Shown here: positions 1,936 to 63,393 of the stretch, in pieces | How the letters are laid out: every line of letters begins with the position of its first letter | Position numbering within the stretch: the stretch's first letter is position 1 | Source of the DNA: Escherichia coli | GTDB lineage: Bacteria > Pseudomonadota > Gammaproteobacteria > Enterobacterales > Enterobacteriaceae | Strand: one strand, 5' to 3' | NCBI RefSeq assembly: GCF_016903815.1 | Contig: NZ_CP069973.1 | Length of the DNA: 64,000 bases | Translations under genes and position numbers: made by a program | Notes under the pieces: model-generated | What the model saw: the letters and a program-made list of their open reading frames with translations, nothing else | Told to the model about the DNA's origin: nothing | Database searches by the model: none

Positions 1936-3176
1936 CAGGGTTTTACCCCCGTGTTTTCAGTTTCTACCCGATCCTGCGTTTCCATTGTCGGCTGAGCGGG
2001 CGGGTCAACCTGCGCCAGACGTGGTGTGTGTGCCGGAAGCCAGCCGACCAGCGCCGGGAAGTGGCGTAAAAAGTGGAAGGCCAGCACGCTTTTGGTCAGA
2101 TTCCACCAGGTGCGTTTCGGCAGCATGGTTTCATCCACCTGCTGGCAGTCTGCGGCGATAATGCCGTTCAGATTATCGCGCAGCGTCTGGTTAAAATGAC
2201 GATCGTGGATGATGACATTTGCTTCGAGATTCAGTGACAAACTGAGCGGATCGAGATTACTGGACCCTACCGTCGCCCAGTGATCGTCCATCAACGCCAC
2301 TTTGCCGTGGAGCGGGCGGCGGCGATACTCAAAAACCTGAACGCCGCCTTTAACCAGATAGTTATACAGCAAGCGCGCGCCGACTCTGACAATCGGCATA
2401 TCCGGTTCGCCCTGAATGATCAGTTTGATCCGCACCCCGCGCCGTGCCGCTTTACGCAAGGCGTGTAAAAATCGATAGCCGGGGAAGAAGTAGGCGTTGG
2501 CGATAATCACTTCCCGCCGTGCCTGAGTGAGCATTTTCAGATAGTGACGTTCAATATCATCGCGATGTTCTTCGTTATCGCGCCAGACCAGCAATACCTG
2601 CGCTTCTCCCGGCTGGCGGTTCTCTTCCGCTTTGTGATGACGTCGCCACCAGCGTCGTGCCGCGCTCTGTCCTGGCAGGTTTTCCAGTTCAAATTGCAGA
2701 ATATCTTCGACAATCGGCCCTTCAAGGCGCACCGCGTAATCCTGTTTAGCCTCTGGACCGTAGCTGGACATATGCTCGGCGGAGTAATTCAGCCCGCCAA
2801 TAAAGGCGATATGCGCGTCGATCACCACAATTTTGCGATGCATCCGGCGAAACACATTGGTGCGCATACCAAAAAGGCGAGGGCGGGGATCGTAGTAGCG
2901 GAACACCACGCCAGCGGCCGTCAGTTCATTGACAAACTCATCGCTGAGATCCGGCGAACCGTAGCCATCAAGTAAGACTTCCGCTTTTACCCCGCGTTGC
3001 GCTGCTGCCAGTAGTGCCGCATGCAGTTGTTTGCCGACGTCATCCTCAAACCAGATAAACGTTTCAAGAATGATGCGTTCTTGTGCCTCGCCAATCGCCT
3101 TAAACACCGCGGGATAATATTGCTCGCCGTTTTCCAGCAACTGGATCTTATTGCCTTCGCGCCAGCTACATTTCAT
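1935..3176 (-). CDS. clsB: cardiolipin synthase B (phospholipase D superfamily)
   Basis: 413 aa with two HKD motifs visible (HRKIVVID…; [20 protein letters not shown]). Confidence 0.9.
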
Positions 3177-3934
3177 AAATGAATCTCCGCACTTAAAGGG
3201 GCATGATCAGAAAGGTGTCGCCATGTCCGCAGCGGCAACGCGGTTGGCGCGCTGGCGCTGGCATTTTTGACGTAGATCCTGTCCAGTCGTAGTAGAGGAA
3301 ATTGCACCGGAAACGTGCGCGCCGGGCGTCCGTGGGCGCGGGTAAAAATCTCATCCAGTCCGGCCTGCACTTTTAACGGATGATTAGCTTTTTGCCGCCA
3401 GTCATTGAAATCACCCGCCACCAATACCGGTTCGCCGTCCGGTAGCTCATTCACCCATTCGGCGAGCATCGCAAGCTGCGCCTGACGGTGCGCCTCACGC
3501 AGGCCCAAATGTACGCACATTACATGAATCGCTTTTCCGGTCATCGGCGGCACAATGCGGCAGTAGAGCACGCCGCGCTTTTCCGCACCATCGACCGAAA
3601 CATCGCGGTTTTCATAATGTTCAATGGGATAGCGCGACAGTACGGCGTTACCGTGATGCCCTTCCGGGTATACGGCATTGCGACCGTAGGCAAAATCGCT
3701 CCACATAGTGTCGGCGAGAAACTCGTAGTGCGAGGTATCGGGCCAGTTTTCCACATGCAGCGGATGAACTTCGTGCGCGCCCATCACTTCCTGCAGGCAA
3801 ACAATATCGGCGCTGACGGTACGCACGGCGTCGCGAAGTTCCGGCAAAATGAAGCGTCGGTTAAACGCGGTAAAGCCTTTGTGAATGTTGATGGTGAGCA
3901 CCTTGAACGAAAATTGTTGTGTTTGATCGGGCAT
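3173..3934 (-). CDS. ybhP: endonuclease/exonuclease/phosphatase family protein YbhP
   Basis: 253 aa, overlaps clsB start by 4 nt; matches K-12 synteny. Confidence 0.85.
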
Positions 3935-11829: not shown

Positions 11830-12270
11830 ATGGCACCAGAAACGATCGATCACTCAACCTTACATAAACTGGTTGAATCTGGCGTAGTGGATGCAGCACA
11901 CGTTATTGGCACCCAGGGAGGCTGGTCGTTGACCGTGAAATACGGCCACACTGAACGGCCTCTTGCAGCACAACGCAGTCGGCAAATCCGCCTGTTCAAA
12001 CGGCTGGAAACGGTTGTCAACTACCTGAAAGATGTTGGTATTGCCCGGTTTGAAGTCGACGCCTCTAATTACGACCCGGACGGTCAGAAGAAAACGACCC
12101 GACCAGACAGGGCTGAGGCATTAAAACGAGCTCATGAAGCTGCCGCGTATGATGCCTGGTTTCGAGAGCAGGTGCAGGCCGCCATTGACGATCCACGCCC
12201 GGCACTCTCTCATGAAGAGGCCAAAAGTCTATTTGCTGCCCGTAAAAAAGCCTTGCTGAAGGGGGATTAA
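11830..12270 (+). CDS. putative antitoxin, 146 aa: uncharacterised N-terminal domain fused to a PaaA2/ParD-like C-terminal ParE-neutralising segment
   Basis: C-terminal AYDAWFREQVQAAIDDPRPALSHEEAKSLFAARKKALLK resembles PaaA2-type antitoxins (…DPRPAIPHDEV… as recalled); stop overlaps the toxin start (taATG); SD-like aagagg upstream. Confidence 0.6.
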   Translation: MAPETIDHSTLHKLVESGVVDAAHVIGTQGGWSLTVKYGHTERPLAAQRSRQIRLFKRLETVVNYLKDVGIARFEVDASNYDPDGQKKTTRPDRAEALKRAHEAAAYDAWFREQVQAAIDDPRPALSHEEAKSLFAARKKALLKGD

Positions 12271-12551
12271 TGCGTCTGGAATGGAAGCCAATGTCCCTGT
12301 CTGACAGGGAGCAAATCATGGAATACATCAGTAAAGATAATCCGCTAGCGGCAATAGCCCTTGATAATCAATTTGAAGCCATTGCGGAACAGGCCTGTGA
12401 ACGCCCGGAGATGTACCGGGCCGGACGAGTCGCTGGTACACATGAAGCCGTTGTCAGGCCGCATTATGTGCTTGTCTATCAAGTGGAGGGCGATACGCTC
12501 TCGGTACTGCGTGTTTTACATACCGCTCTGCAATGGCCGCCAGCGGAATAA
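12270..12551 (+). CDS. parE: ParE/RelE-superfamily toxin (type II toxin-antitoxin system)
   Basis: 93 aa; …YVLVYQVEGDTLSVLRVLHTA… is the typical ParE C-terminal signature; translationally coupled to the upstream antitoxin. Confidence 0.75.
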   Translation: MRLEWKPMSLSDREQIMEYISKDNPLAAIALDNQFEAIAEQACERPEMYRAGRVAGTHEAVVRPHYVLVYQVEGDTLSVLRVLHTALQWPPAE

Positions 12552-37155: not shown

Positions 37156-39531
37156 TTAACGCATCCATTCACTCCCTTCAACACCATTGACCAGCAGCGT
37201 GCGTTTTTCTTCCACTGGTAATGACACTTTCAGTGCACTCCATGCAGGTCGATAATCCCCGCGCGCGTTGACTTTCAGGTTGATGGTCGCCCCATCGCAA
37301 ACCATTTCCCATTCCACCCAAAGCGCATTACCAGTTTGGTAGCCCCAGCTTTCGCCATCGTCTTCAAACAGCAGGCCGGACGTTGTGCCCACACCTTTCA
37401 GCGGGAACAGTTTCAGTTCGCGGGTATCGTCTTGTTCTGCGCTCACATAGGTGATGCGTTTGCTGAGCGGTAGACCAGCCCCGGCACGCACCATCAGCGG
37501 CAGTTTCTCCAGCGGTGCGTCGAGGGTGATCCACTGACCGCCACTGAACCATTCGCCGTTGTAGAAATCGTACCAGCCAGTTTCGTTATCTGGCAGCCAT
37601 ACACGGCGCTGGCGCTCGCCTTGCTCTACGACGCTGGCAACCAAAATATCGCGACCAAGCAGGAAGTCATCACACTCTTCAAAAGTCTGAACGTCGTGCT
37701 CGTGGTCAAGGAAAGTCGGACGTAGCATTGGTTCATCATCGGCGTATGCCTGCCACATCAGGGTATAAAAGTAGGGCAGCAGGCGATAGCGCAACTCAAT
37801 AGCGCTGCGGATCGCCGGAGTGACGCCCGGATACATCCACGGTTCGTTTACGGTATGGTCATCGTTCCACGAGTGAATCGTAAAGCGCGGATGCATCACG
37901 CCGTTTTGTACCCAGCGTACAAACAGTTCCGGGTCCGGCTTATCACCGGAGAAACCGCCGACGTCGTGACCGAGGTTATACAGCCCGGAGAGGCTCATCC
38001 CCAGACCCATGCGGGTGTTGTAGCGCAGAGTGTCCCAGCTAGTGCGGTTATCGCCGCTCCAGGTCTGCACATAGCGCTGCATTCCCGCGCAGCCGGAGCG
38101 GGAGATCAAGTACGGACGTTTTTCCGGAGCGAAACGTTGCTGGGCTTCCATCGAGGCTCGCATCATCAGCAGTGGCATCACCGGGCGAATATGTTTGATC
38201 GCGATCGTCTGACCAAAGCCGTGACAGCGTGCTTCACCGTCCCATACTTCGAATTCGTTGTTGTCGTTCCAGGTGGAGTCGATACCCATCTCCAGAAGCT
38301 GTGTGGTCACGCCTTCCTGCCACCACTGGATGGTCTGCGGATTAGTAAAGTCGAGGTTAGAACCTTCGTCATCCCAGAAGCTGGAACGTTCTGGTTCATC
38401 TGTTTCTGAATCACGGATGAACAGTCCTCTTTCTGCCACTTCGTTATAGCGTGGGTGATCCTGCAACAGGCACGGCTTGATATTGGCGGCCAAGTGCAAA
38501 CCAGCATTGTGAAATGCCTGGCTCATCACTTTCGGCTGCGGCACTTTGTCGTAATTCCAGTTGAACACATAGCGCTTGCCGTTAATTGAGGTATAACCGG
38601 AAGAGAGCTGGAACGAATCGCAGGGAATCGCATGTTCTTCACACAGGCGGATAAAGTTCATCAACTGATTTTGTGCGTCCGGCGCATCGGTGTAGTGCAT
38701 AGTTGAACCGCTGTAGCCCAGGCTCCATTTCGGTCCGAACAGGGTTTTGCCGGTCAGGCGTACGAAGGCTTTGGTGATATCAAGTACGCGTTCGCCGGTA
38801 AACAGGTAGTAGTCGATATCACCCGCTTCCGCCTGCCAGCGGCGATAGGCGGTGTGGTAGTTGTCGATCTCGTTGCCCAGATCCAGCCAGCAGCTGCTGA
38901 GGTTGTCATAAAACAGGCCGAAGCTAACGTCATCGCGGCGGGTGATGGTGAATGGAATGTGTTTGTACAACGGGTCAGTACTCACGGCGTTGTAGCCCAT
39001 CGCGTCGAGGTTACGCATCTCGTAACGTTTACCGTTGCGTTGCAGGTCGCCGGCTTTATCTCCGAGGCCATAAAAGCGTTCATCTTTACGACGGCTCTGA
39101 TAGTGCGCCACGCCGTCGCCGTGGGCATTCAGCAGATAAGCGCTGGTCGGGCGGTCATTCACCAACGGCAGCCATTCGCCTTCGTTGTTACGATAGTGCC
39201 ACTCCAGCCACAGCGGCTGGTGAACGGTGGCACGCAGTGACTCGGTGGCGATAACCACGGTGTCGTCGTGCTGGATCAATGTCCACGCGGGCAGGCTAAA
39301 GCCGCTGAGATCTTCGCGGCTGCGCCCTTCCCATGGCACATCCTGCGCCGGAGCAATGCTCCAGGTGCGATCCAGCGCCAGCTCGCCTTTGCGTTTTAAC
39401 AGCACGCGGAACAGATTTTCTTCCAGCACGTACAGGCACAGGATATGCTGGCCATCGACCAGCAGTTCAACGTGGTGGGCAGACTGTTTGTGCAGGGTCC
39501 AGTTTTTCAGCGTTTTCATGTTTACATCCAC
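37156..39531 (-). CDS. glycoside hydrolase family 31 enzyme (alpha-glycosidase), substrate unknown
   Basis: 791 aa; GH31 nucleophile region (GIDSTWNDNNEF, like WiDMNE) and acid/base region (GHDVGGF, like GADICGF); translationally coupled to the upstream MFS gene; not in K-12 between ybiT and ybiU as recalled. Confidence 0.75.
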   Translation of the reverse strand: MDVNMKTLKNWTLHKQSAHHVELLVDGQHILCLYVLEENLFRVLLKRKGELALDRTWSIAPAQDVPWEGRSREDLSGFSLPAWTLIQHDDTVVIATESLRATVHQPLWLEWHYRNNEGEWLPLVNDRPTSAYLLNAHGDGVAHYQSRRKDERFYGLGDKAGDLQRNGKRYEMRNLDAMGYNAVSTDPLYKHIPFTITRRDDVSFGLFYDNLSSCWLDLGNEIDNYHTAYRRWQAEAGDIDYYLFTGERVLDITKAFVRLTGKTLFGPKWSLGYSGSTMHYTDAPDAQNQLMNFIRLCEEHAIPCDSFQLSSGYTSINGKRYVFNWNYDKVPQPKVMSQAFHNAGLHLAANIKPCLLQDHPRYNEVAERGLFIRDSETDEPERSSFWDDEGSNLDFTNPQTIQWWQEGVTTQLLEMGIDSTWNDNNEFEVWDGEARCHGFGQTIAIKHIRPVMPLLMMRASMEAQQRFAPEKRPYLISRSGCAGMQRYVQTWSGDNRTSWDTLRYNTRMGLGMSLSGLYNLGHDVGGFSGDKPDPELFVRWVQNGVMHPRFTIHSWNDDHTVNEPWMYPGVTPAIRSAIELRYRLLPYFYTLMWQAYADDEPMLRPTFLDHEHDVQTFEECDDFLLGRDILVASVVEQGERQRRVWLPDNETGWYDFYNGEWFSGGQWITLDAPLEKLPLMVRAGAGLPLSKRITYVSAEQDDTRELKLFPLKGVGTTSGLLFEDDGESWGYQTGNALWVEWEMVCDGATINLKVNARGDYRPAWSALKVSLPVEEKRTLLVNGVEGSEWMR

Positions 39532-39533
39532 TC

Positions 39534-40841
39534 TCAGGCGCGTTTTGCGCGACGTTCAGCAATAAAGGTGACCAGGAAGAAAGCACCAATCAGGTCAAAG
39601 AAGCCCATGGCGATAAACAGGGGGTTAAAGCCGATTTTGTCAGCGGTAACCCCGATAATCAGGGAGAACAGGAAACTTGCGATCCACGCGGCAGAACCGC
39701 GCATGCCGTTAACAGTGGCCATCTGACCTTTGTCGAAGGATTCCACCACCAGTGCGCTCAGCATGCAGGAGATGATCTGGTGACCGAAGCCGCCGATGGA
39801 AATAAGGACGATGGCGATATACGGGTTATTGGTAAAGGCCATCACCGCCAGCGAAACCATCAGGAATGCGCCACTGACCGATGATGCGACAACGGAGTTC
39901 ACACGACTCAGCCCAAACAGGCGGGTGTAAAGTTTGGTCAGATAGCCGCTGGCAATACTGCCAAGATCAGCGGCGAGGAACGGCAACCAGGCGAATAATG
40001 CGATCTGCTTCAGGTCCATGCCATAGGTTTTGGACAGGTATAGCGGAACCCAGAAACTCATCACCGCCCACGCCGGTTCTGCCATAAAGGCCGGGATAGC
40101 GATACCGTAAAAGCGTTTATTTTTGCCTACGGTTTTCAGTGCGGTCAGAAAGGGTAACTTGACAGGGGGCGCTTCGTTATCCTGGCGGATAAAGTCCAGC
40201 TCGGCTTTGCTGAGGTTAGGATGCTTATCCGGGTTGTGATAGAACGCCCACCACAGCACCACCCACAGCATCGCCAGGATGCCAGTGAACATAAATGCAC
40301 CCTGCCAGCCGAATGAAGCGTGGGCAAAATAGATAATCGGTGGGGCCAGCATGGCACCGATGGAAAAACCGACGCCTGCCCAGCCTGCGGCGATCGGGCG
40401 TTCTGATTTTGGAAACCATTCACCGATGGTTTTGGCGTTTGCTGGGGTTGCCGCGGCTTCCGCACCGCCCATAAAGAAGCGCAACAGCGCCAGATGTACC
40501 CAGTTTCCCGCCCCCGCATGCATCAGACAGGCCAGCGCCCACAGTCCCGCGCAGATCATAAAGCCCAGTTTGAGGCCAATGACGTCAATCAGCCATCCAC
40601 ACAACGGTTGGAATAGGGTATAGGCGAGCTGGAAAGCACCTACAATCCAGGAATATTGTTCGGTGGTAATCCCCAGGTTGCTTTTCAGTTCGGGGGCGAG
40701 AATACCCAGCGAGTTACGCGTGATGTAGTTGACAGTAACACCGAGCAAAAAAAGGACCAGTATCCACCAACGCAGATTTTTGACGATATGGCGCGGTTTA
40801 CTGGCAGTCATATCGTTATTGATACCCTGACTCATATGCAC
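39534..40841 (-). CDS. MFS transporter, anion:cation symporter (ACS) family, ExuT/GudP-like
   Basis: 435 aa, about 12 TM helices; clear similarity to hexuronate transporter ExuT as recalled (…NYITRNSLGILAPEL…EQYSWIVGAF…GFGHQ…); annotated start is GTG at 40841 with an ATG two codons downstream. Confidence 0.75.
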   Translation of the reverse strand: MHMSQGINNDMTASKPRHIVKNLRWWILVLFLLGVTVNYITRNSLGILAPELKSNLGITTEQYSWIVGAFQLAYTLFQPLCGWLIDVIGLKLGFMICAGLWALACLMHAGAGNWVHLALLRFFMGGAEAAATPANAKTIGEWFPKSERPIAAGWAGVGFSIGAMLAPPIIYFAHASFGWQGAFMFTGILAMLWVVLWWAFYHNPDKHPNLSKAELDFIRQDNEAPPVKLPFLTALKTVGKNKRFYGIAIPAFMAEPAWAVMSFWVPLYLSKTYGMDLKQIALFAWLPFLAADLGSIASGYLTKLYTRLFGLSRVNSVVASSVSGAFLMVSLAVMAFTNNPYIAIVLISIGGFGHQIISCMLSALVVESFDKGQMATVNGMRGSAAWIASFLFSLIIGVTADKIGFNPLFIAMGFFDLIGAFFLVTFIAERRAKRA

Positions 40842-40863
40842 TCCACAGAATGGTATAGGGTTT

Positions 40864-40894
40864 GTGTGGCAACGTCAGAATGGAGTTGTCACAC
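40864..40894. promoter_or_regulatory. imperfect inverted repeat gtgtgGcaac-N11-gttgtCacac in the divergent MFS/LacI promoter region (candidate operator)
   Basis: 9 of 10 bp arm complementarity read in sequence, 23 bp upstream of the MFS start. Confidence 0.3.
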
Positions 40895-41129
40895 CACTTT
40901 TAACTTTTTGATAAATAAAGTCTTTATTGTTCGTTTTTCCATTATTTTTGTATGGAAGTTGTTCTACCAATTCACAGTAAGAGACCCTAAAAGCGAAAGA
41001 AAGCGGGTTTTGTGCACGTTTTTCCATGAGTGACTGATATACATTACTGAAATGGATTTAATGCCAGACAGAATGGGCTTTTTTGCTCATGAAAATTCTG
41101 TCATTTCCGAATTAGAGGCAGATCACAAA

Positions 41130-42233
41130 ATGGACAAGAAGCTGAAAATCGCCGATATCGCCGCACGTACCGGGCTATCGCCGAGTACGGTTTCGCGGGT
41201 GCTGGCTGGCAAAGCGAATACCAGTGCACGCGCTCGCGAACAGGTGCTGGCCTGCGCGCGTGAGTTGGGCGTGATGGATGGCATGGCAGCAGGTCGTATG
41301 TTGCTGAACAACCTGATTATTTTCGCGCCGCAACGCGCTTTTGACCAACGATCTGATATCTTTTATTACCGTGTGATCCAGAGCATCAGCAAAGCGTTAT
41401 CGCCGCATGAAGTGCGGCTGCGTTACTGCGCGCTGGAGGAGTTTGACAGCGATCCCGCGCTATTTCTCTCGCGGATGAATGAAGCAGATACGCAGGCGGC
41501 GATCCTGCTGGGGATTGACGATCCGCACATCCATGATCTGGCCGCCGATCTCGCTAAGCCTTGTGTGCTGATCAACTGCCGTGATGAACGAATGCGCCTC
41601 CCGGCGATTGCGCCGGACCATCGGTTAATTGGCGCGTTCGCCGCCCGCTATCTGTTTGAAATGGGTCACCGGGAGGTGATGAATGTGATGTGCCTGCGCC
41701 GCTACACTATGGAGCAGCGGTTTGCAGGGATTAAAGAATCATGGCGTCAGCATAATCTGGCCTTTCACCATGACCGTCATTTGCTGAATATCAGCAGTTT
41801 TAGCGCTAAAGAAGCGGAAGAAAAGGTCGGAGCGTGGCTGGATGCCGCCAATGGCAAGACGTTGCCGACGGCGTTTCTGGTCGGCGGGGATTTTATGGCG
41901 GCGGGAACGGTAAATGCGCTACATCGTCGTGGTCTGCGCGTACCACAGGATGTCTCGGTGATGAGTATCGACGGCTTTAACCTTGCGGCAATCGAGGATG
42001 TTCCCCTGACGGCTGTGCATGTGCCACGCGATGAGCTAGGCAATGAAGCGGTGCAAATGTTGCAACAGCGGCTGATTCGCCCGGATGCTCCGGTGGGCTC
42101 GCTGCTGCTGCACGGACGATTGGCGGTGCGGGAGTCAGTGCGGCGGGTTCGCCCAGGAAAAGGGAACACCGCCGTGGAACGGGAAGGGCTGTACGACACT
42201 CAGCTGTCGATTCCCAACGCTCGCTTACCGTGA
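41130..42233 (+). CDS. LacI/GalR-family transcriptional regulator
   Basis: ORF 41052..42233; start placed at MDKKLKIADIAARTGLSPSTVSRVLAG (canonical LacI HTH), 367 aa; periplasmic-binding-protein-like effector domain; 3' end overlaps the ybiU 3' end. Confidence 0.8.
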   Translation: MDKKLKIADIAARTGLSPSTVSRVLAGKANTSARAREQVLACARELGVMDGMAAGRMLLNNLIIFAPQRAFDQRSDIFYYRVIQSISKALSPHEVRLRYCALEEFDSDPALFLSRMNEADTQAAILLGIDDPHIHDLAADLAKPCVLINCRDERMRLPAIAPDHRLIGAFAARYLFEMGHREVMNVMCLRRYTMEQRFAGIKESWRQHNLAFHHDRHLLNISSFSAKEAEEKVGAWLDAANGKTLPTAFLVGGDFMAAGTVNALHRRGLRVPQDVSVMSIDGFNLAAIEDVPLTAVHVPRDELGNEAVQMLQQRLIRPDAPVGSLLLHGRLAVRESVRRVRPGKGNTAVEREGLYDTQLSIPNARLP

Positions 42234-59738: not shown

Positions 59739-61067
59739 ATGTCCAGAATCAATAAGTTCGTACTTACAGTCAGTCTGCTGATTTTTATCATGATTTCAGC
59801 AGTTGCCTGCGGGATCTACACTCAAATGGTAAAGGAACGGGTGTATGGCCTGAAACAGTCCGTTATTGATACTGCTTTTGCGGTGGCAAATATTGCTGAA
59901 TATCGGCGTAGCGTGGCAATTGATCTCATCAACACGCTAAACCCCACGGAGGAACAGCTGTTGGTTGGTTTGCGCACAGCTTACGCCGACTCGGTTTCAC
60001 CCTCTTATTTGTACGATGTCGGTCCTTATCTGATTTCCAGTGACGAATGTATTCAGGTAAAGGAGTTCGAGAAAAATTATTGTGCAGATATTATGCAGAT
60101 TGTGAAGTATCGACATGTCAAAAATACAGGGTTTATCTCTTTTGACGGTAAAACCTTCGTCTATTACCTCTATCCGGTAACTCATAATCGTAGTCTGATA
60201 TTTTTGCTTGGTCTGGAGCGTTTTTCTTTACTGTCAAAATCGCTGGCGATGGATAGCGAGAACCTGATGTTCTCTCTGTTTAAGAACGGTAAACCGGTGA
60301 CCGGTGATGAATTTAATGCTAAAAACGCCATCTTCACCGTTTCGGAAGCGATGGAGCACTTCGCCTATTTGCCGACCGGATTGTACGTATTTGCGTATAA
60401 AAAAGATGTTTATTTGCGGGTCTGTACATTGATTATTTTCTTTGCCGCATTGGTGGCAGTGATTTCGGGTGTCAGTTGCCTCTATCTGGTACGCAGAGTG
60501 ATTAATCGTGGTATTGTGGAGAAAGAAGCCATCATTAATAACCATTTTGAACGCGTACTGGATGGCGGGCTTTTCTTTTCGGCTGCCGATGTCAAAAAAC
60601 TCTACAGTCTGTATAACTCGGCGTTCCTGGATGACCTGACCAAAGCAATGGGCAGAAAATCCTTTGACGAAGATTTAAAAGCGCTGCCGGAAAAAGGCGG
60701 TTATTTGTGCCTGTTTGACGTCGATAAATTCAAAAACATCAACGACACTTTCGGTCATTTGCTGGGCGATGAAGTGTTGATGAAAGTGGTGAAAATCCTT
60801 AAATCACAGATCCCCGTAGATAAAGGTAAAGTCTACCGCTTCGGCGGTGACGAATTTGCGGTGATTTATACGGGTGGAACGCTGGAAGAGTTGCTATCGA
60901 TTCTAAAAGAAATTGTTCATTTCCAGGTGGGAAGCATTAATTTAAGCACCAGTATCGGTGTAGCGCATTCAAATGAATGTACTACCGTCGAACGCTTGAA
61001 AATGCTGGCGGATGAGCGGCTGTATAAGAGTAAGAAAAACGGCAGGGCGCAGATTAGCTGGCAGTAG
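59739..61067 (+). CDS. dgcI: diguanylate cyclase DgcI (YliF), GGDEF domain
   Basis: 442 aa with N-terminal TM/periplasmic region and GGDEF motif ([10 protein letters not shown]). Confidence 0.9.
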
Positions 61068-61081
61068 AATTAGAATAGTGT

Positions 61082-61107
61082 TAGTACCCCTTAATCAAGG
61101 GGTACTA
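61082..61107. terminator. perfect 11-bp-stem hairpin between dgcI and the toxin-antitoxin cassette (likely bidirectional terminator, possibly the cassette junction)
   Basis: tagtacccctt-aatc-aaggggtacta read in sequence. Confidence 0.5.
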
Positions 61108-61136
61108 ATGAATGTGGTAAATCATTTGCAAACATT

Positions 61137-61466
61137 TTACTTTGCAAAAACTTCCGGCCCTTTTATTGCCAATGTATTCAAAATACGTAATGCCGGGCCG
61201 CTCGGTTTTATTTCATTACGTTCCCATTTCGAGACACTTTCTTTTGACATTCCCATTGTATGTGCCAGCACGGATTGTGACATGCCGTATCGGGTGCGGA
61301 TGGCTTTGATCTCTTCACCCGTCATTGATTTGACTTTGGCTATACGGGCGCTGACTTCACGAGCTTTGACCATGACGGCAATGGCATCAACTTCACTATC
61401 AGACATCAGGCCCAGTGCATTCAGTTCCTTTGCATCTTCCAGCATCATTTGTAATTTATCGCTCAT
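61137..61466 (-). CDS. higA: HTH (XRE-family) antitoxin, HigA-like
   Basis: 109 aa; HTH segment …GMSQSVLAHTMGMSKESVSKWE…; located downstream of and overlapping the toxin gene by 11 nt. Confidence 0.65.
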   Translation of the reverse strand: MSDKLQMMLEDAKELNALGLMSDSEVDAIAVMVKAREVSARIAKVKSMTGEEIKAIRTRYGMSQSVLAHTMGMSKESVSKWERNEIKPSGPALRILNTLAIKGPEVFAK

Positions 61467-61842
61467 TTTTCACCTCAATCAAAAAGCCAGTTTCGATCAA
61501 ATCCTCTATTTGCTTATTGCTAAAGGCCAGAAATGCATTTGCCATTTTTTTGTAGGCCGCCAGTTCATCATCTTCGATTTCTTTGGTTCCTTTACTGCTT
61601 AGACCACTCTTGGACCAACCATCATAAAAAAACACATGATTTGCTGATTTAAAAAAGATAATTGTTCTGGCTCCACCACTCTTTCCTTGTTGGAGGGGTA
61701 AACGTTTTTTGATGACACCGCTACCTAAATCAGCCTCCCATATGCCCTGCATCACTTCTTCAGCGGCAGCCATGAGAACTTTATCGTGAATACCAAGTTT
61801 TTTCGTGCTTTGGCTGAATCGTCTTGCCTTATACACACCCAT
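61456..61842 (-). CDS. higB: putative RelE/ParE-superfamily toxin, HigB-like (toxin-first operon)
   Basis: 128 aa; toxin-then-HTH-antitoxin order is typical of HigBA-type modules; contains …GKSGGARTIIFFK…HVFFYDGWSKS…; family assignment is by gene context and recall, not alignment. Confidence 0.55.
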   Translation of the reverse strand: MGVYKARRFSQSTKKLGIHDKVLMAAAEEVMQGIWEADLGSGVIKKRLPLQQGKSGGARTIIFFKSANHVFFYDGWSKSGLSSKGTKEIEDDELAAYKKMANAFLAFSNKQIEDLIETGFLIEVKNER

Positions 61843-61857
61843 ACATCCATCCTTGTG

Positions 61858-61883
61858 GTAATGTTTACTATAGTAACCATTAC
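61858..61883. promoter_or_regulatory. 26-bp near-perfect palindrome (24 of 26) immediately upstream of the toxin SD; candidate toxin-antitoxin operator
   Basis: gtaatgtttactatagtaaccattac, 16 bp upstream of the toxin ATG. Confidence 0.4.
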
Positions 61884-62067
61884 GCTTATTTCAAGTAATT
61901 GCGATCAAAACTTTAATTTGGTGTGAAAAAGTGAGAGTTGCCTCGAGTACGATTCATTTTTCTCGATTTATGCGTCAGGGGATTTTGTGCGTAAGGGTAG
62001 GACATCGGGAAGGGTAGCAGAGGCAGATCGAAGAACAATATCCTTGTTAGATCTGCCTTAAGATTAA

Positions 62068-63393
62068 TTAAACCCGGCTACCCCACAAATCGTACTCATC
62101 GGCGTGCTCGACTTTCACACGCAGGATATCACCCGGCTTAACGTTGGTTTCACCATTGAGATAAACCGCTCCGTCGATTTCCGGTGCATCTGCCATGCTG
62201 CGACCAATCGCGCCTTCTTCGTCCACTTCGTCGATAATCACCAGAATTTCACGGCCCACTTTCTCTTGCAGGCGCTCGGCGGAAATCTGCTGCTGCAGCT
62301 GCATGAAACGGTTCCAGCGTTCTTCTTTCACTTCTTCCGGAACCTGGTCAGGCAGGGCATTGGCGTCTGCACCTTCAACCGGGCTGTATTTAAAGCAGCC
62401 AACGCGATCCAGACGCGCTTCTTTCAGGAAGTCGAGTAGCATCTGGAAATCTTCTTCTGTCTCGCCAGGGAAGCCGACAATAAAGGTTGAGCGTAGGGTC
62501 AGTTCCGGGCAGATTTCGCGCCACTGTTTGATGCGCGCGAGTTGGCGATCTACAGAACCCGGACGCTTCATCAGTTTGAGAATGCGCGGGCTGGCGTGCT
62601 GCAACGGAATGTCCAGATACGGCAGGATTTTGCCTTCTGCCATCAGTGGGATGACGTCGTCCACATGCGGATAAGGGTAAACGTAGTGCAGACGTGTCCA
62701 GATCCCCAGTTTCGATAACTGTTCGCACAGGCTGACCATGCTGGTTTTTACCGGCTCGCCGTTGTGGAAGCCAGTACGATGTTTAACATCGACGCCATAG
62801 GCGGAAGTATCCTGCGAGATCACCAGAATCTCTTTAACGCCCGCATCAACCAGACGTTTCGCTTCACTTAACACTTCGCCAATCGGACGGCTCACCAGGT
62901 CGCCGCGCATAGACGGAATAATGCAGAAGGTGCAGCGGTGATTACAGCCTTCAGAAATTTTCAGATAGGCATAATGACGCGGCGTCAGTTTCACGCCTTG
63001 TTCTGGCACCAGGCTCAGGAATGGGTTGTGTTTCGGTTTTGGCACGTAGTGATGAACGTGCTCCAGAACCTGCTCATAGCTATGAGGCCCGGTGATTTCC
63101 AGCACTTTCGGGTGGACTTCGCGGATCTGATCTTCTTTTGCCCCCAGACAACCGGTCACAATTACCTTGCCGTTTTCATTCAACGCTTCACCAATGGCTT
63201 CCAGTGATTCTTGTACCGCGCTGTCAATAAAGCCGCAGGTGTTGACGATCACCATGTCCGCATCGTCATAGCTCGGTACCACGTCATAACCTTCAGTGCG
63301 TAGTTCGGTGAGAATACGCTCTGAATCGACAAGGTTTTTCGGACAGCCAAGGGAAACAAAGCCGATTTTCGGCTGGGGAGTTACTTTGCTCAT
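62068..63393 (-). CDS. rimO: ribosomal protein S12 methylthiotransferase RimO (radical SAM MTTase)
   Basis: 441 aa with N-terminal MTTase Cys triad and radical-SAM CxxxCxxC (CNHRCTFC). Confidence 0.93.

Follow-up and report, generated by a model that had tools for sequence, protein, structure and literature searches.

In a 64,000-nucleotide stretch of the Escherichia coli contig NZ_CP069973.1 (assembly GCF_016903815.1; hereafter the window), two adjacent minus-strand genes between dgcI and rimO very probably form a chromosomal type II toxin-antitoxin operon of the HigB2/HigA2 kind, with a toxin of the family PF06296. The toxin gene (61456..61842, minus strand; 128 amino acids, HigB2-type RelE fold) comes first and is followed by the antitoxin gene (61137..61466, minus strand; 109 amino acids, HigA2-like). 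In the six-frame list of open reading frames (ORFs), the two overlap by 11 nt, exactly as had been read in the initial annotation of this DNA, which described a minus-strand 128-aa putative toxin and a 109-aa antitoxin with an XRE-type helix-turn-helix (HTH) domain. Shine-Dalgarno motifs were read from the sequence for both genes: AAGGA (61850..61854, minus strand) lies 7 nt before the toxin ATG, and GAGGTGA (61470..61476, minus strand) lies 3 nt before the antitoxin ATG. Because the latter motif is located within the 3′ end of the toxin gene, translational coupling of the two genes is implied. The genes were found paired in every related locus examined. The pair is already annotated in RefSeq as a RelE/ParE-family toxin-antitoxin pair in more than 1000 complete E. 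coli genomes, where the Prokaryotic Genome Annotation Pipeline (PGAP) names the toxin “RelE/ParE family toxin”; in the searchable literature, queried by protein accession, locus tags and gene neighbours, no published study of this particular pair was found.

The family assignment of the toxin, which the initial annotation had left tentative, rests on a full-length match to the Pfam model PF06296 (E 6.9e-33; 113.8 bits, with a cut-off of 27), in which residues 1-124 cover all 120 model positions (1-120). No Pfam match at E ≤ 1 was obtained to the HigB families PF05015 and PF09907 or to ParE_toxin (PF05016), there was no Pfam match to the YafQ and MqsR families, and no NCBIfam model matched the toxin. 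The earlier remark that this protein is neither a textbook RelE nor a textbook HigB is therefore borne out by the absence of matches to the Rts1-type HigB families and to the ParE/RelE family PF05016, and so is the description of the pair as a HigB/HigA-like, toxin-first module, given the PF06296 match and the fact that the best solved-structure matches of the toxin and the antitoxin are HigB2 and HigA2, respectively. PF06296 is a large family, with 950 representative clusters at E ≤ 1e-3. A survey reported that its members have been called HigB2, RelE or StbE, that they are encoded in toxin-first order, and that they act by ribosome-dependent mRNA degradation (PMC11980606).

Structural comparisons pointed in the same direction. 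A search of the PDB with the single toxin sequence found nothing, and a profile built from 19 toxin homologs matched Vibrio cholerae HigB-2 (E 9e-5). The toxin was modelled with AlphaFold2 (AF2) at a mean predicted local distance difference test (pLDDT) score of 87 and a predicted template modelling (pTM) score of 0.83. When this model was compared with the PDB using Foldseek, the top four matches were all HigB2 chains (8A0X/5JAA/5JA8; probability 1.0, TM 0.50-0.62), followed by YafQ, Streptococcus pneumoniae HigB, ParE1 and BrnT. The modelled fold of the toxin is that of the RelE/ParE (BECR) group, closest to HigB2. The active site of V. cholerae HigB2 (VcHigB2) was defined by mutagenesis as R51, R64, Y82 and K84 (PMC5416850), and in the profile alignment these residues correspond to R47, R59, W76 and K78 of the toxin, which we predict to form its active site. 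Across the 19 homologs, R47, R59 and K78 never vary, and W76 varies once, to tyrosine; the replacement of Tyr by Trp would be a conservative one.

The antitoxin matches the Pfam family HTH_3 (E 1.9e-9) and consists of a helical N-terminal region (approximately residues 1-46) and a C-terminal XRE HTH domain (approximately residues 48-109). Its sequence matches were P22 C2 and V. cholerae HigA-2 (VcHigA2), and in a profile comparison residues 47-101 aligned to residues 38-92 of HigA2 (5JAA_A; E 4e-6). The AF2 model of the antitoxin (pLDDT 91) likewise gave HigA2 (5JAA/5J9I) as its best PDB match in Foldseek, with a root-mean-square deviation of 1.6 Å over 62 residues at 27% identity, ahead of MqsA, controller proteins and phage repressors. 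Among the PADLOC models, only generic HTH models matched. Two helices in the N-terminal region (residues 4-17 and 23-46) were predicted confidently, and nowhere is the family alignment more variable than in these 46 residues; by analogy, this is presumably the region that neutralises the toxin.

Among characterised systems, the closest is V. cholerae HigB2/HigA2 (VCA0468/0469; 5JA8, 5JAA, 8A0X). That system shares the toxin-first order, a RelE-fold toxin with an Arg/Arg/aromatic/Lys active site, an antitoxin in which an N-terminal part that (here presumably) neutralises the toxin is joined to an XRE HTH dimer domain at the C-terminus, and a single palindromic operator lying between the −35 box and across the −10 box. 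Several differences nevertheless weigh against assigning the two pairs to the same kind. The toxin is only approximately 11-16% identical to VcHigB2, and the profile match is limited to the core residues 40-85. At the active site, Trp stands where VcHigB2 has Tyr82. The toxin has 128 amino acids compared with 110 in HigB2, and its AF2 model contains an additional C-terminal helix and strand that are absent from VcHigB2. The N-terminus of HigA2 is disordered, whereas a stable pair of helices is predicted for that of the antitoxin. At each of the four positions through which VcHigA2 contacts DNA bases, the antitoxin has another residue, R68/E71/N72/R77 aligning to E76/S79/K80/E85; this last difference fits the differing operator sequences, which are GTAA-N3-TTAC TATA GTAA-N3-TTAC (26 bp) here and TGTACGC-N5-GCGTACA (19 bp) for VcHigA2. 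Furthermore, the V. cholerae pair is a superintegron cassette, whereas the pair described here occupies a fixed chromosomal site.

Other known systems are more remote. HigB/HigA of Proteus vulgaris Rts1 has the same inverted gene order, an XRE-type antitoxin and a toxin that is a ribosome-dependent RNase of the RelE superfamily, but the toxin described here matches neither PF05015 nor PF09907, and the antitoxin architecture and mode of neutralisation differ. The C-terminal helix is missing from Rts1 HigB, whose structure is further removed from that of HigB2 (PMC5416850). E. coli MqsR/MqsA is also toxin-first, and the antitoxin HTH resembles the C-terminal domain of MqsA (Foldseek 3GN5, 3FMY), with scores of 47 bits to TIGR03830 and 20.6 bits to PF15731, both below the curated cut-offs; however, the zinc-binding CxxC N-terminal domain of MqsA is absent and the toxin is not MqsR-like. 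For the Acinetobacter baumannii “HigBA2” a family link was not established, and the shared name was not used as evidence. Within PF06296 itself (formerly DUF1044 / COG4737, with HTH_3 partners), the likeness is full-length and the toxin-antitoxin order is the same, and nothing sets this pair apart; it belongs to one enterobacterial branch, with toxins at least 42% identical, that has its own conserved operator.

The candidate operator is a 26-bp palindrome, GTAATGTTTACTATAGTAACCATTAC (61858..61883), just upstream of the toxin Shine-Dalgarno motif. In agreement with the 24 of 26 positions counted in the initial annotation, 12 of its 13 arm pairs match. It reads as two GTAA-N3-TTAC boxes flanking TATA, and can be taken either as one 26-bp palindrome or as two such boxes 15 bp apart. 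A promoter scan returned a sole strong match in the region, a sigma-70-type promoter on the minus strand (61867..61894; 10 of 12 matches) with the −35 box TTGAAA (61894..61889), a 16-nt spacer and the −10 box TATAGT (61872..61867), the last of which forms the exact centre of the palindrome. The VcHigA2 operator, as mapped by footprinting, is placed on its promoter in the same way, starting just past the −35 box and extending over the −10 box (PMC11006873). Equally good zero-spacer palindromes numbered three in the window, including this palindrome and the hairpin between dgcI and the antitoxin gene described below, compared with a mean of 0.1 per window in first-order Markov shuffles. The third (28591-28620), with perfect 13-bp arms, lies in the dps-rhtA intergenic region and is presumably the rhtA terminator.

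To examine its conservation, the 90 nt upstream of the toxin gene were compared among ten related cassettes, namely those of E. coli O157:H7 Sakai, the Enterobacteriaceae genome UBA5654, two Kluyvera species, a metagenomic Kluyvera relative, Xenorhabdus and Providencia plasmids, and three more distant metagenomic loci. Nine of the ten, representing 8 distinct upstream sequences, contain the 12-bp core of the palindrome, TTACTATAGTAA (61865-61876), down to 50% toxin identity, and the flanking DNA was unalignable; the region from Sakai matches that of the window exactly, and the Xenorhabdus copy retains 11 of the 12 core bases. The outer arms are mostly GTA... and ...TAC, and in the Providencia palindrome they carry a compensatory change from GTAAT/ATTAC to GTACC/GGTAC. 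A cassette with a toxin of 42% identity has a different perfect palindrome, ATAGCACTTAGTGCTAT, at the same distance from the ATG. Conservation of the core amid unalignable flanks supports an autoregulatory operator, and the pattern is as would be expected of an operator co-evolving with its repressor.

From these elements and from what is known of the family, the following mechanism can be proposed. The two translationally coupled genes would be expressed from the one sigma-70-type promoter. The toxin would enter the ribosomal A site and cut mRNA under translation, and growth would stop, unless the N-terminal region of the antitoxin wraps and inactivates it. Antitoxin dimers, with or without bound toxin, would occupy the palindrome and thereby silence the promoter. 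Loss of the labile antitoxin, through degradation or a failure to replace it, would release the toxin and lift the repression of the operon.

Within E. coli the operon is patchily distributed. A full segment was present at this site in 1129 of 5426 complete E. coli genomes (~21%), and at least part of it in 1138; the copies are chromosomal, with a per-genome median of one and a maximum of two. Among the carriers are O157:H7 Sakai (as ECs_5399/ECs_5400, “addiction module toxin RelE”), EDL933 and IAI39, the proteins of IAI39 being identical to those of the window. For both the toxin and the antitoxin, the exact sequence is recorded on 1000 or more contigs, “Addiction module toxin RelE” being one of the names used, and the intact 128-aa toxin is the dominant form, with 666 cluster members. 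Compared with Sakai, the toxin gene of the window has 6 differences, 1 of them non-synonymous, corresponding to a ratio of non-synonymous to synonymous substitution rates (dN/dS) of 0.05, and the antitoxin gene has 3 differences, all synonymous (dN/dS 0); relative to UBA5654, dN/dS is approximately 0.05-0.08. Judged from these substitution patterns, both genes are under strong purifying selection. The segment as a whole diverges from that of Sakai by 1.2%, and the flanking core genes by 0.8-2.0%. Strain BS-01 (NZ_CP172816.1) was considered as a decaying allele (92% identity, no antitoxin) and was discarded as homopolymer-run assembly noise: its cassette region (2460-3330) contains long homopolymer runs, its pdeI has an internal stop, and the record looks like one of poor consensus quality. 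Strain STK78-E (NZ_CP162185.1) has an IS1 copy in the gsiD-rimO interval and lacks pdeI and dgcI entirely.

Alignment of the junction to K-12 fixed the borders of the allele-specific segment at 61068..62062 (995 bp), so that it extends beyond the 61068-61900 given in the initial annotation. As stated there, rimO directly follows dgcI in K-12; in BW25113 the two genes are 46 bp apart. Homology to K-12 ends within the dgcI stop codon, which is TAG here and TAA in K-12, at its third base, and restarts at ATTAATTAAACCC, 5 nt after the rimO stop codon, so that the entire K-12 spacer is replaced, not interrupted. The empty 46-bp spacer, itself a strong hairpin, is base-for-base identical in K-12, CFT073 and IAI1 (which we take to belong to phylogroups A, B2 and B1, respectively) and is unrelated to the 995-bp segment; matches of this spacer scattered inside the cassette in a MAFFT alignment were spurious. 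Beyond the two genes, ORFs in the segment are short or antisense within them. No transposase, integrase, terminal inverted repeats, target duplication or attC site was found at the borders or within the 995 bp, and a search of 60900-62300 against Rfam gave nothing at E ≤ 1.

Two hairpins lie within the segment. The first (61081..61108), between the convergent dgcI and antitoxin genes, had been described as a perfect 11-bp stem at 61082..61107; it is indeed perfect, but its stem extends to 12 bp with a 4-nt loop. Its folding energies were −17.7 and −23 kcal/mol (z −3.5 and −4.9), its sequence occurs once in the window, and it is probably a two-way terminator or a 3′-end protective hairpin. In K-12, UBA5654 and Kluyvera, the corresponding junction between convergent genes is likewise occupied by a stable hairpin, in each case a different and unrelated one, which argues that this one is a generic 3′-end structure of a convergent gene pair rather than the border of a mobile element. 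The second hairpin (62021..62058, minus strand; −16.2 kcal/mol, z −2.5) lies 10 nt beyond the rimO stop codon and is probably a rimO 3′-end structure, standing between rimO and the toxin promoter. A terminator scan called neither hairpin, because neither has a U-tract. The initial annotation had regarded the first hairpin and the palindrome as brackets of the cassette, a view that we abandon because both are internal functional elements and not segment borders.

The relatives in other genera bear on how the pair reached this locus. In UBA5654 the gene order is bssR-rimO-(SUKH-family gene)-toxin-antitoxin-gsiD-gsiC-gsiB, a relative order that matches E. coli except that pdeI/dgcI are missing, and the cassette DNA is 75% identical, with flanking genes at 79-84%. 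In that locus (2738-3688), a 316-aa protein of the SUKH / SMI1-KNR4 family, whose members are typically immunity proteins, is encoded between rimO and the toxin-antitoxin promoter, where E. coli has approximately 160 bp. The antitoxin gene is convergent with gsiD in Kluyvera sichuanensis, K. georgiana and the metagenomic relative. Genuine plasmid relatives were found in Providencia, Moellerella and Xenorhabdus at ~70% DNA identity, none being closer. Three near-identical E. coli “plasmid” matches were set aside, as their records of 0.7-4.9 Mb are chromosomes or misassemblies, and a “Collinsella sp.” contig from a metagenome-assembled genome (JAIJJM010000872.1, 1198 bp; toxin 100% identical) is almost certainly E. 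coli contamination. Among phages, the only toxin relative was a protein annotated as hypothetical in Escherichia phage PhiR12_3 (PV340552.1, 4340-4657; 37% identity over 86% of the length), and the most distant cassette (42% toxin identity; locus 1-2176) lies directly downstream of a phage-integrase-like gene.

Since several genera are unlikely to have acquired the cassette independently at one and the same position, these arrangements favour an old resident that was lost or replaced in most E. coli lineages, and, together with the absence of scars, they make loss in K-12-like lineages at least as likely as insertion. Within the Escherichia/Kluyvera group, the pair may thus be a long-standing inhabitant of the gsiD-rimO neighbourhood that was lost elsewhere; it would persist in E. 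coli as a two-allele presence/absence polymorphism and not as a recent mobile insertion. Three observations count against such a history. A scan of one genome per species detected no close relative in the representative genomes of other Escherichia species; the distribution within E. coli is patchy, IAI39 (F) and O157:H7 (E) carrying the pair and K-12 (A), IAI1 (B1) and CFT073 (B2) being without it; and, in the alignment, the empty allele retains no recognisable cassette remnant.

The alternative, in line with the inserted cassette of the initial annotation, is a recent horizontal insertion of a mobile cassette into a K-12-type dgcI-rimO spacer, which we regard as possible but on balance unlikely. 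The adjacency of relatives to transposases on the Providencia, Moellerella and Xenorhabdus plasmids would fit this history, as would the absence of the cassette from most E. coli genomes and from the representative genomes of other Escherichia species, and the identity of the empty allele in three phylogroups. However, the borders lack an integrase gene, inverted repeats and a duplicated target site, and the spacer has been exchanged in its entirety; among genuine plasmids, none carries a near-identical copy; and copies from phylogroups E and F diverge by 1.2%, matching their flanks. The same neighbourhood also recurs in Kluyvera and UBA5654, at an identity near that of the flanks (75% compared with 79-84%). 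That the cassette was inserted between dgcI and rimO is accordingly unproven. The neighbouring cyclic di-GMP genes pdeI/dgcI, to which the initial annotation had drawn attention, are incidental, because the Kluyvera and UBA5654 cassettes lack them.

The same module could alternatively be kept mainly for abortive-infection phage defence, in which phage takeover would deplete the antitoxin and the freed nuclease would kill the cell. Modules of the RelE/ParE superfamily have been discussed as defence toxins (PMC11980606), presence/absence polymorphism in E. coli is typical of defence genes, and both the 37%-identical homolog on PhiR12_3 and the integrase-like gene beside the 42%-identical cassette are compatible with such a role. 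We nevertheless consider it improbable as the main function: no PADLOC defence model matches the toxin, the neighbours are housekeeping genes with no defence island or mobile element, and the position is stable across genera, unlike that of fast-turnover defence loci.

A stronger version of the old-resident history would have the pair vertically inherited and fixed at this locus since before the Escherichia/Kluyvera split, held as a balanced two-allele polymorphism and possibly also tied functionally to rimO. The rimO gene lies on the same strand as the toxin gene, and all that stands between it and the toxin promoter is a hairpin lacking a U-tract. RimO modifies S12, a ribosomal protein of the decoding centre, and toxins of this kind act at that same centre. 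Given this adjacency and the role of S12, read-through could couple toxin dosage to the ribosome modification state, although we hold the proposal as a whole to be very doubtful.

Retention of the pair as an inactive relic, in which the toxin would no longer be toxic and the two genes would persist as a small autoregulated transcription factor or by chance, appears highly improbable. The Trp in place of Tyr at one active-site position and some truncated toxin variants in the protein database could be read in this sense, but the toxin dN/dS of 0.05, the invariance of R47, R59 and K78 and near-invariance of W76 across the 19 homologs, and the dominance of the intact 128-aa form (666 cluster members; exact sequence on at least 1000 contigs) all speak against it, and the sole apparently decayed allele examined was an assembly artefact. 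Finally, it is extremely improbable that the toxin poisons DNA gyrase like ParE instead of cutting mRNA: RelE and ParE share a fold, the PGAP name is the generic “RelE/ParE family toxin” and ParDE1 was among the weak fold matches (E 0.65), but PF05016 is not matched, the best fold and sequence matches are to the RNase HigB2 with its RNase active-site residues retained, and PF06296 is listed under ribosome-dependent mRNA degradation (PMC11980606).

Elsewhere in the window, a second strain-specific toxin-antitoxin pair was found at 11830-12551 (plus strand), between rhlE and dinG. The first product has 146 amino acids and, towards its C-terminus, a PaaA2 “stability determinant” motif (PF21217, 2e-10); the second, a ParE_toxin protein of 93 amino acids (12270-12548), matches PF05016 (1e-13), unlike the toxin between dgcI and rimO. 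In IAI1, the rhlE-dinG interval contains ybiA with an IS621 copy instead, and dinG, just downstream of this second pair, is annotated as frameshifted in the sequence-identical strain 7/2. Between ybiT and ybiU (37156-42233), the window carries genes for a glycoside hydrolase of family GH31, a major facilitator superfamily transporter and a LacI-family regulator, which are absent from that position in O157:H7 Sakai and IAI1. The first 284 positions (1-284) lie within an IS200C-family transposase gene, and an unnamed hypothetical gene follows at 554-943.

As the toxin family is well populated and structurally understood, the identification of one more member adds little beyond bookkeeping. What this locus contributes is a precise predicted operator motif for the enterobacterial branch of the family, TTACTATAGTAA between GTA... 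and ...TAC, and a dgcI-rimO junction that presents a clean two-allele polymorphism without insertion scars. K-12, which lacks the pair, would be a convenient clean host in which to test it. Such modules are usually pictured as highly mobile, and a chromosomal pair that apparently keeps its neighbourhood across genera does not conform to that view.

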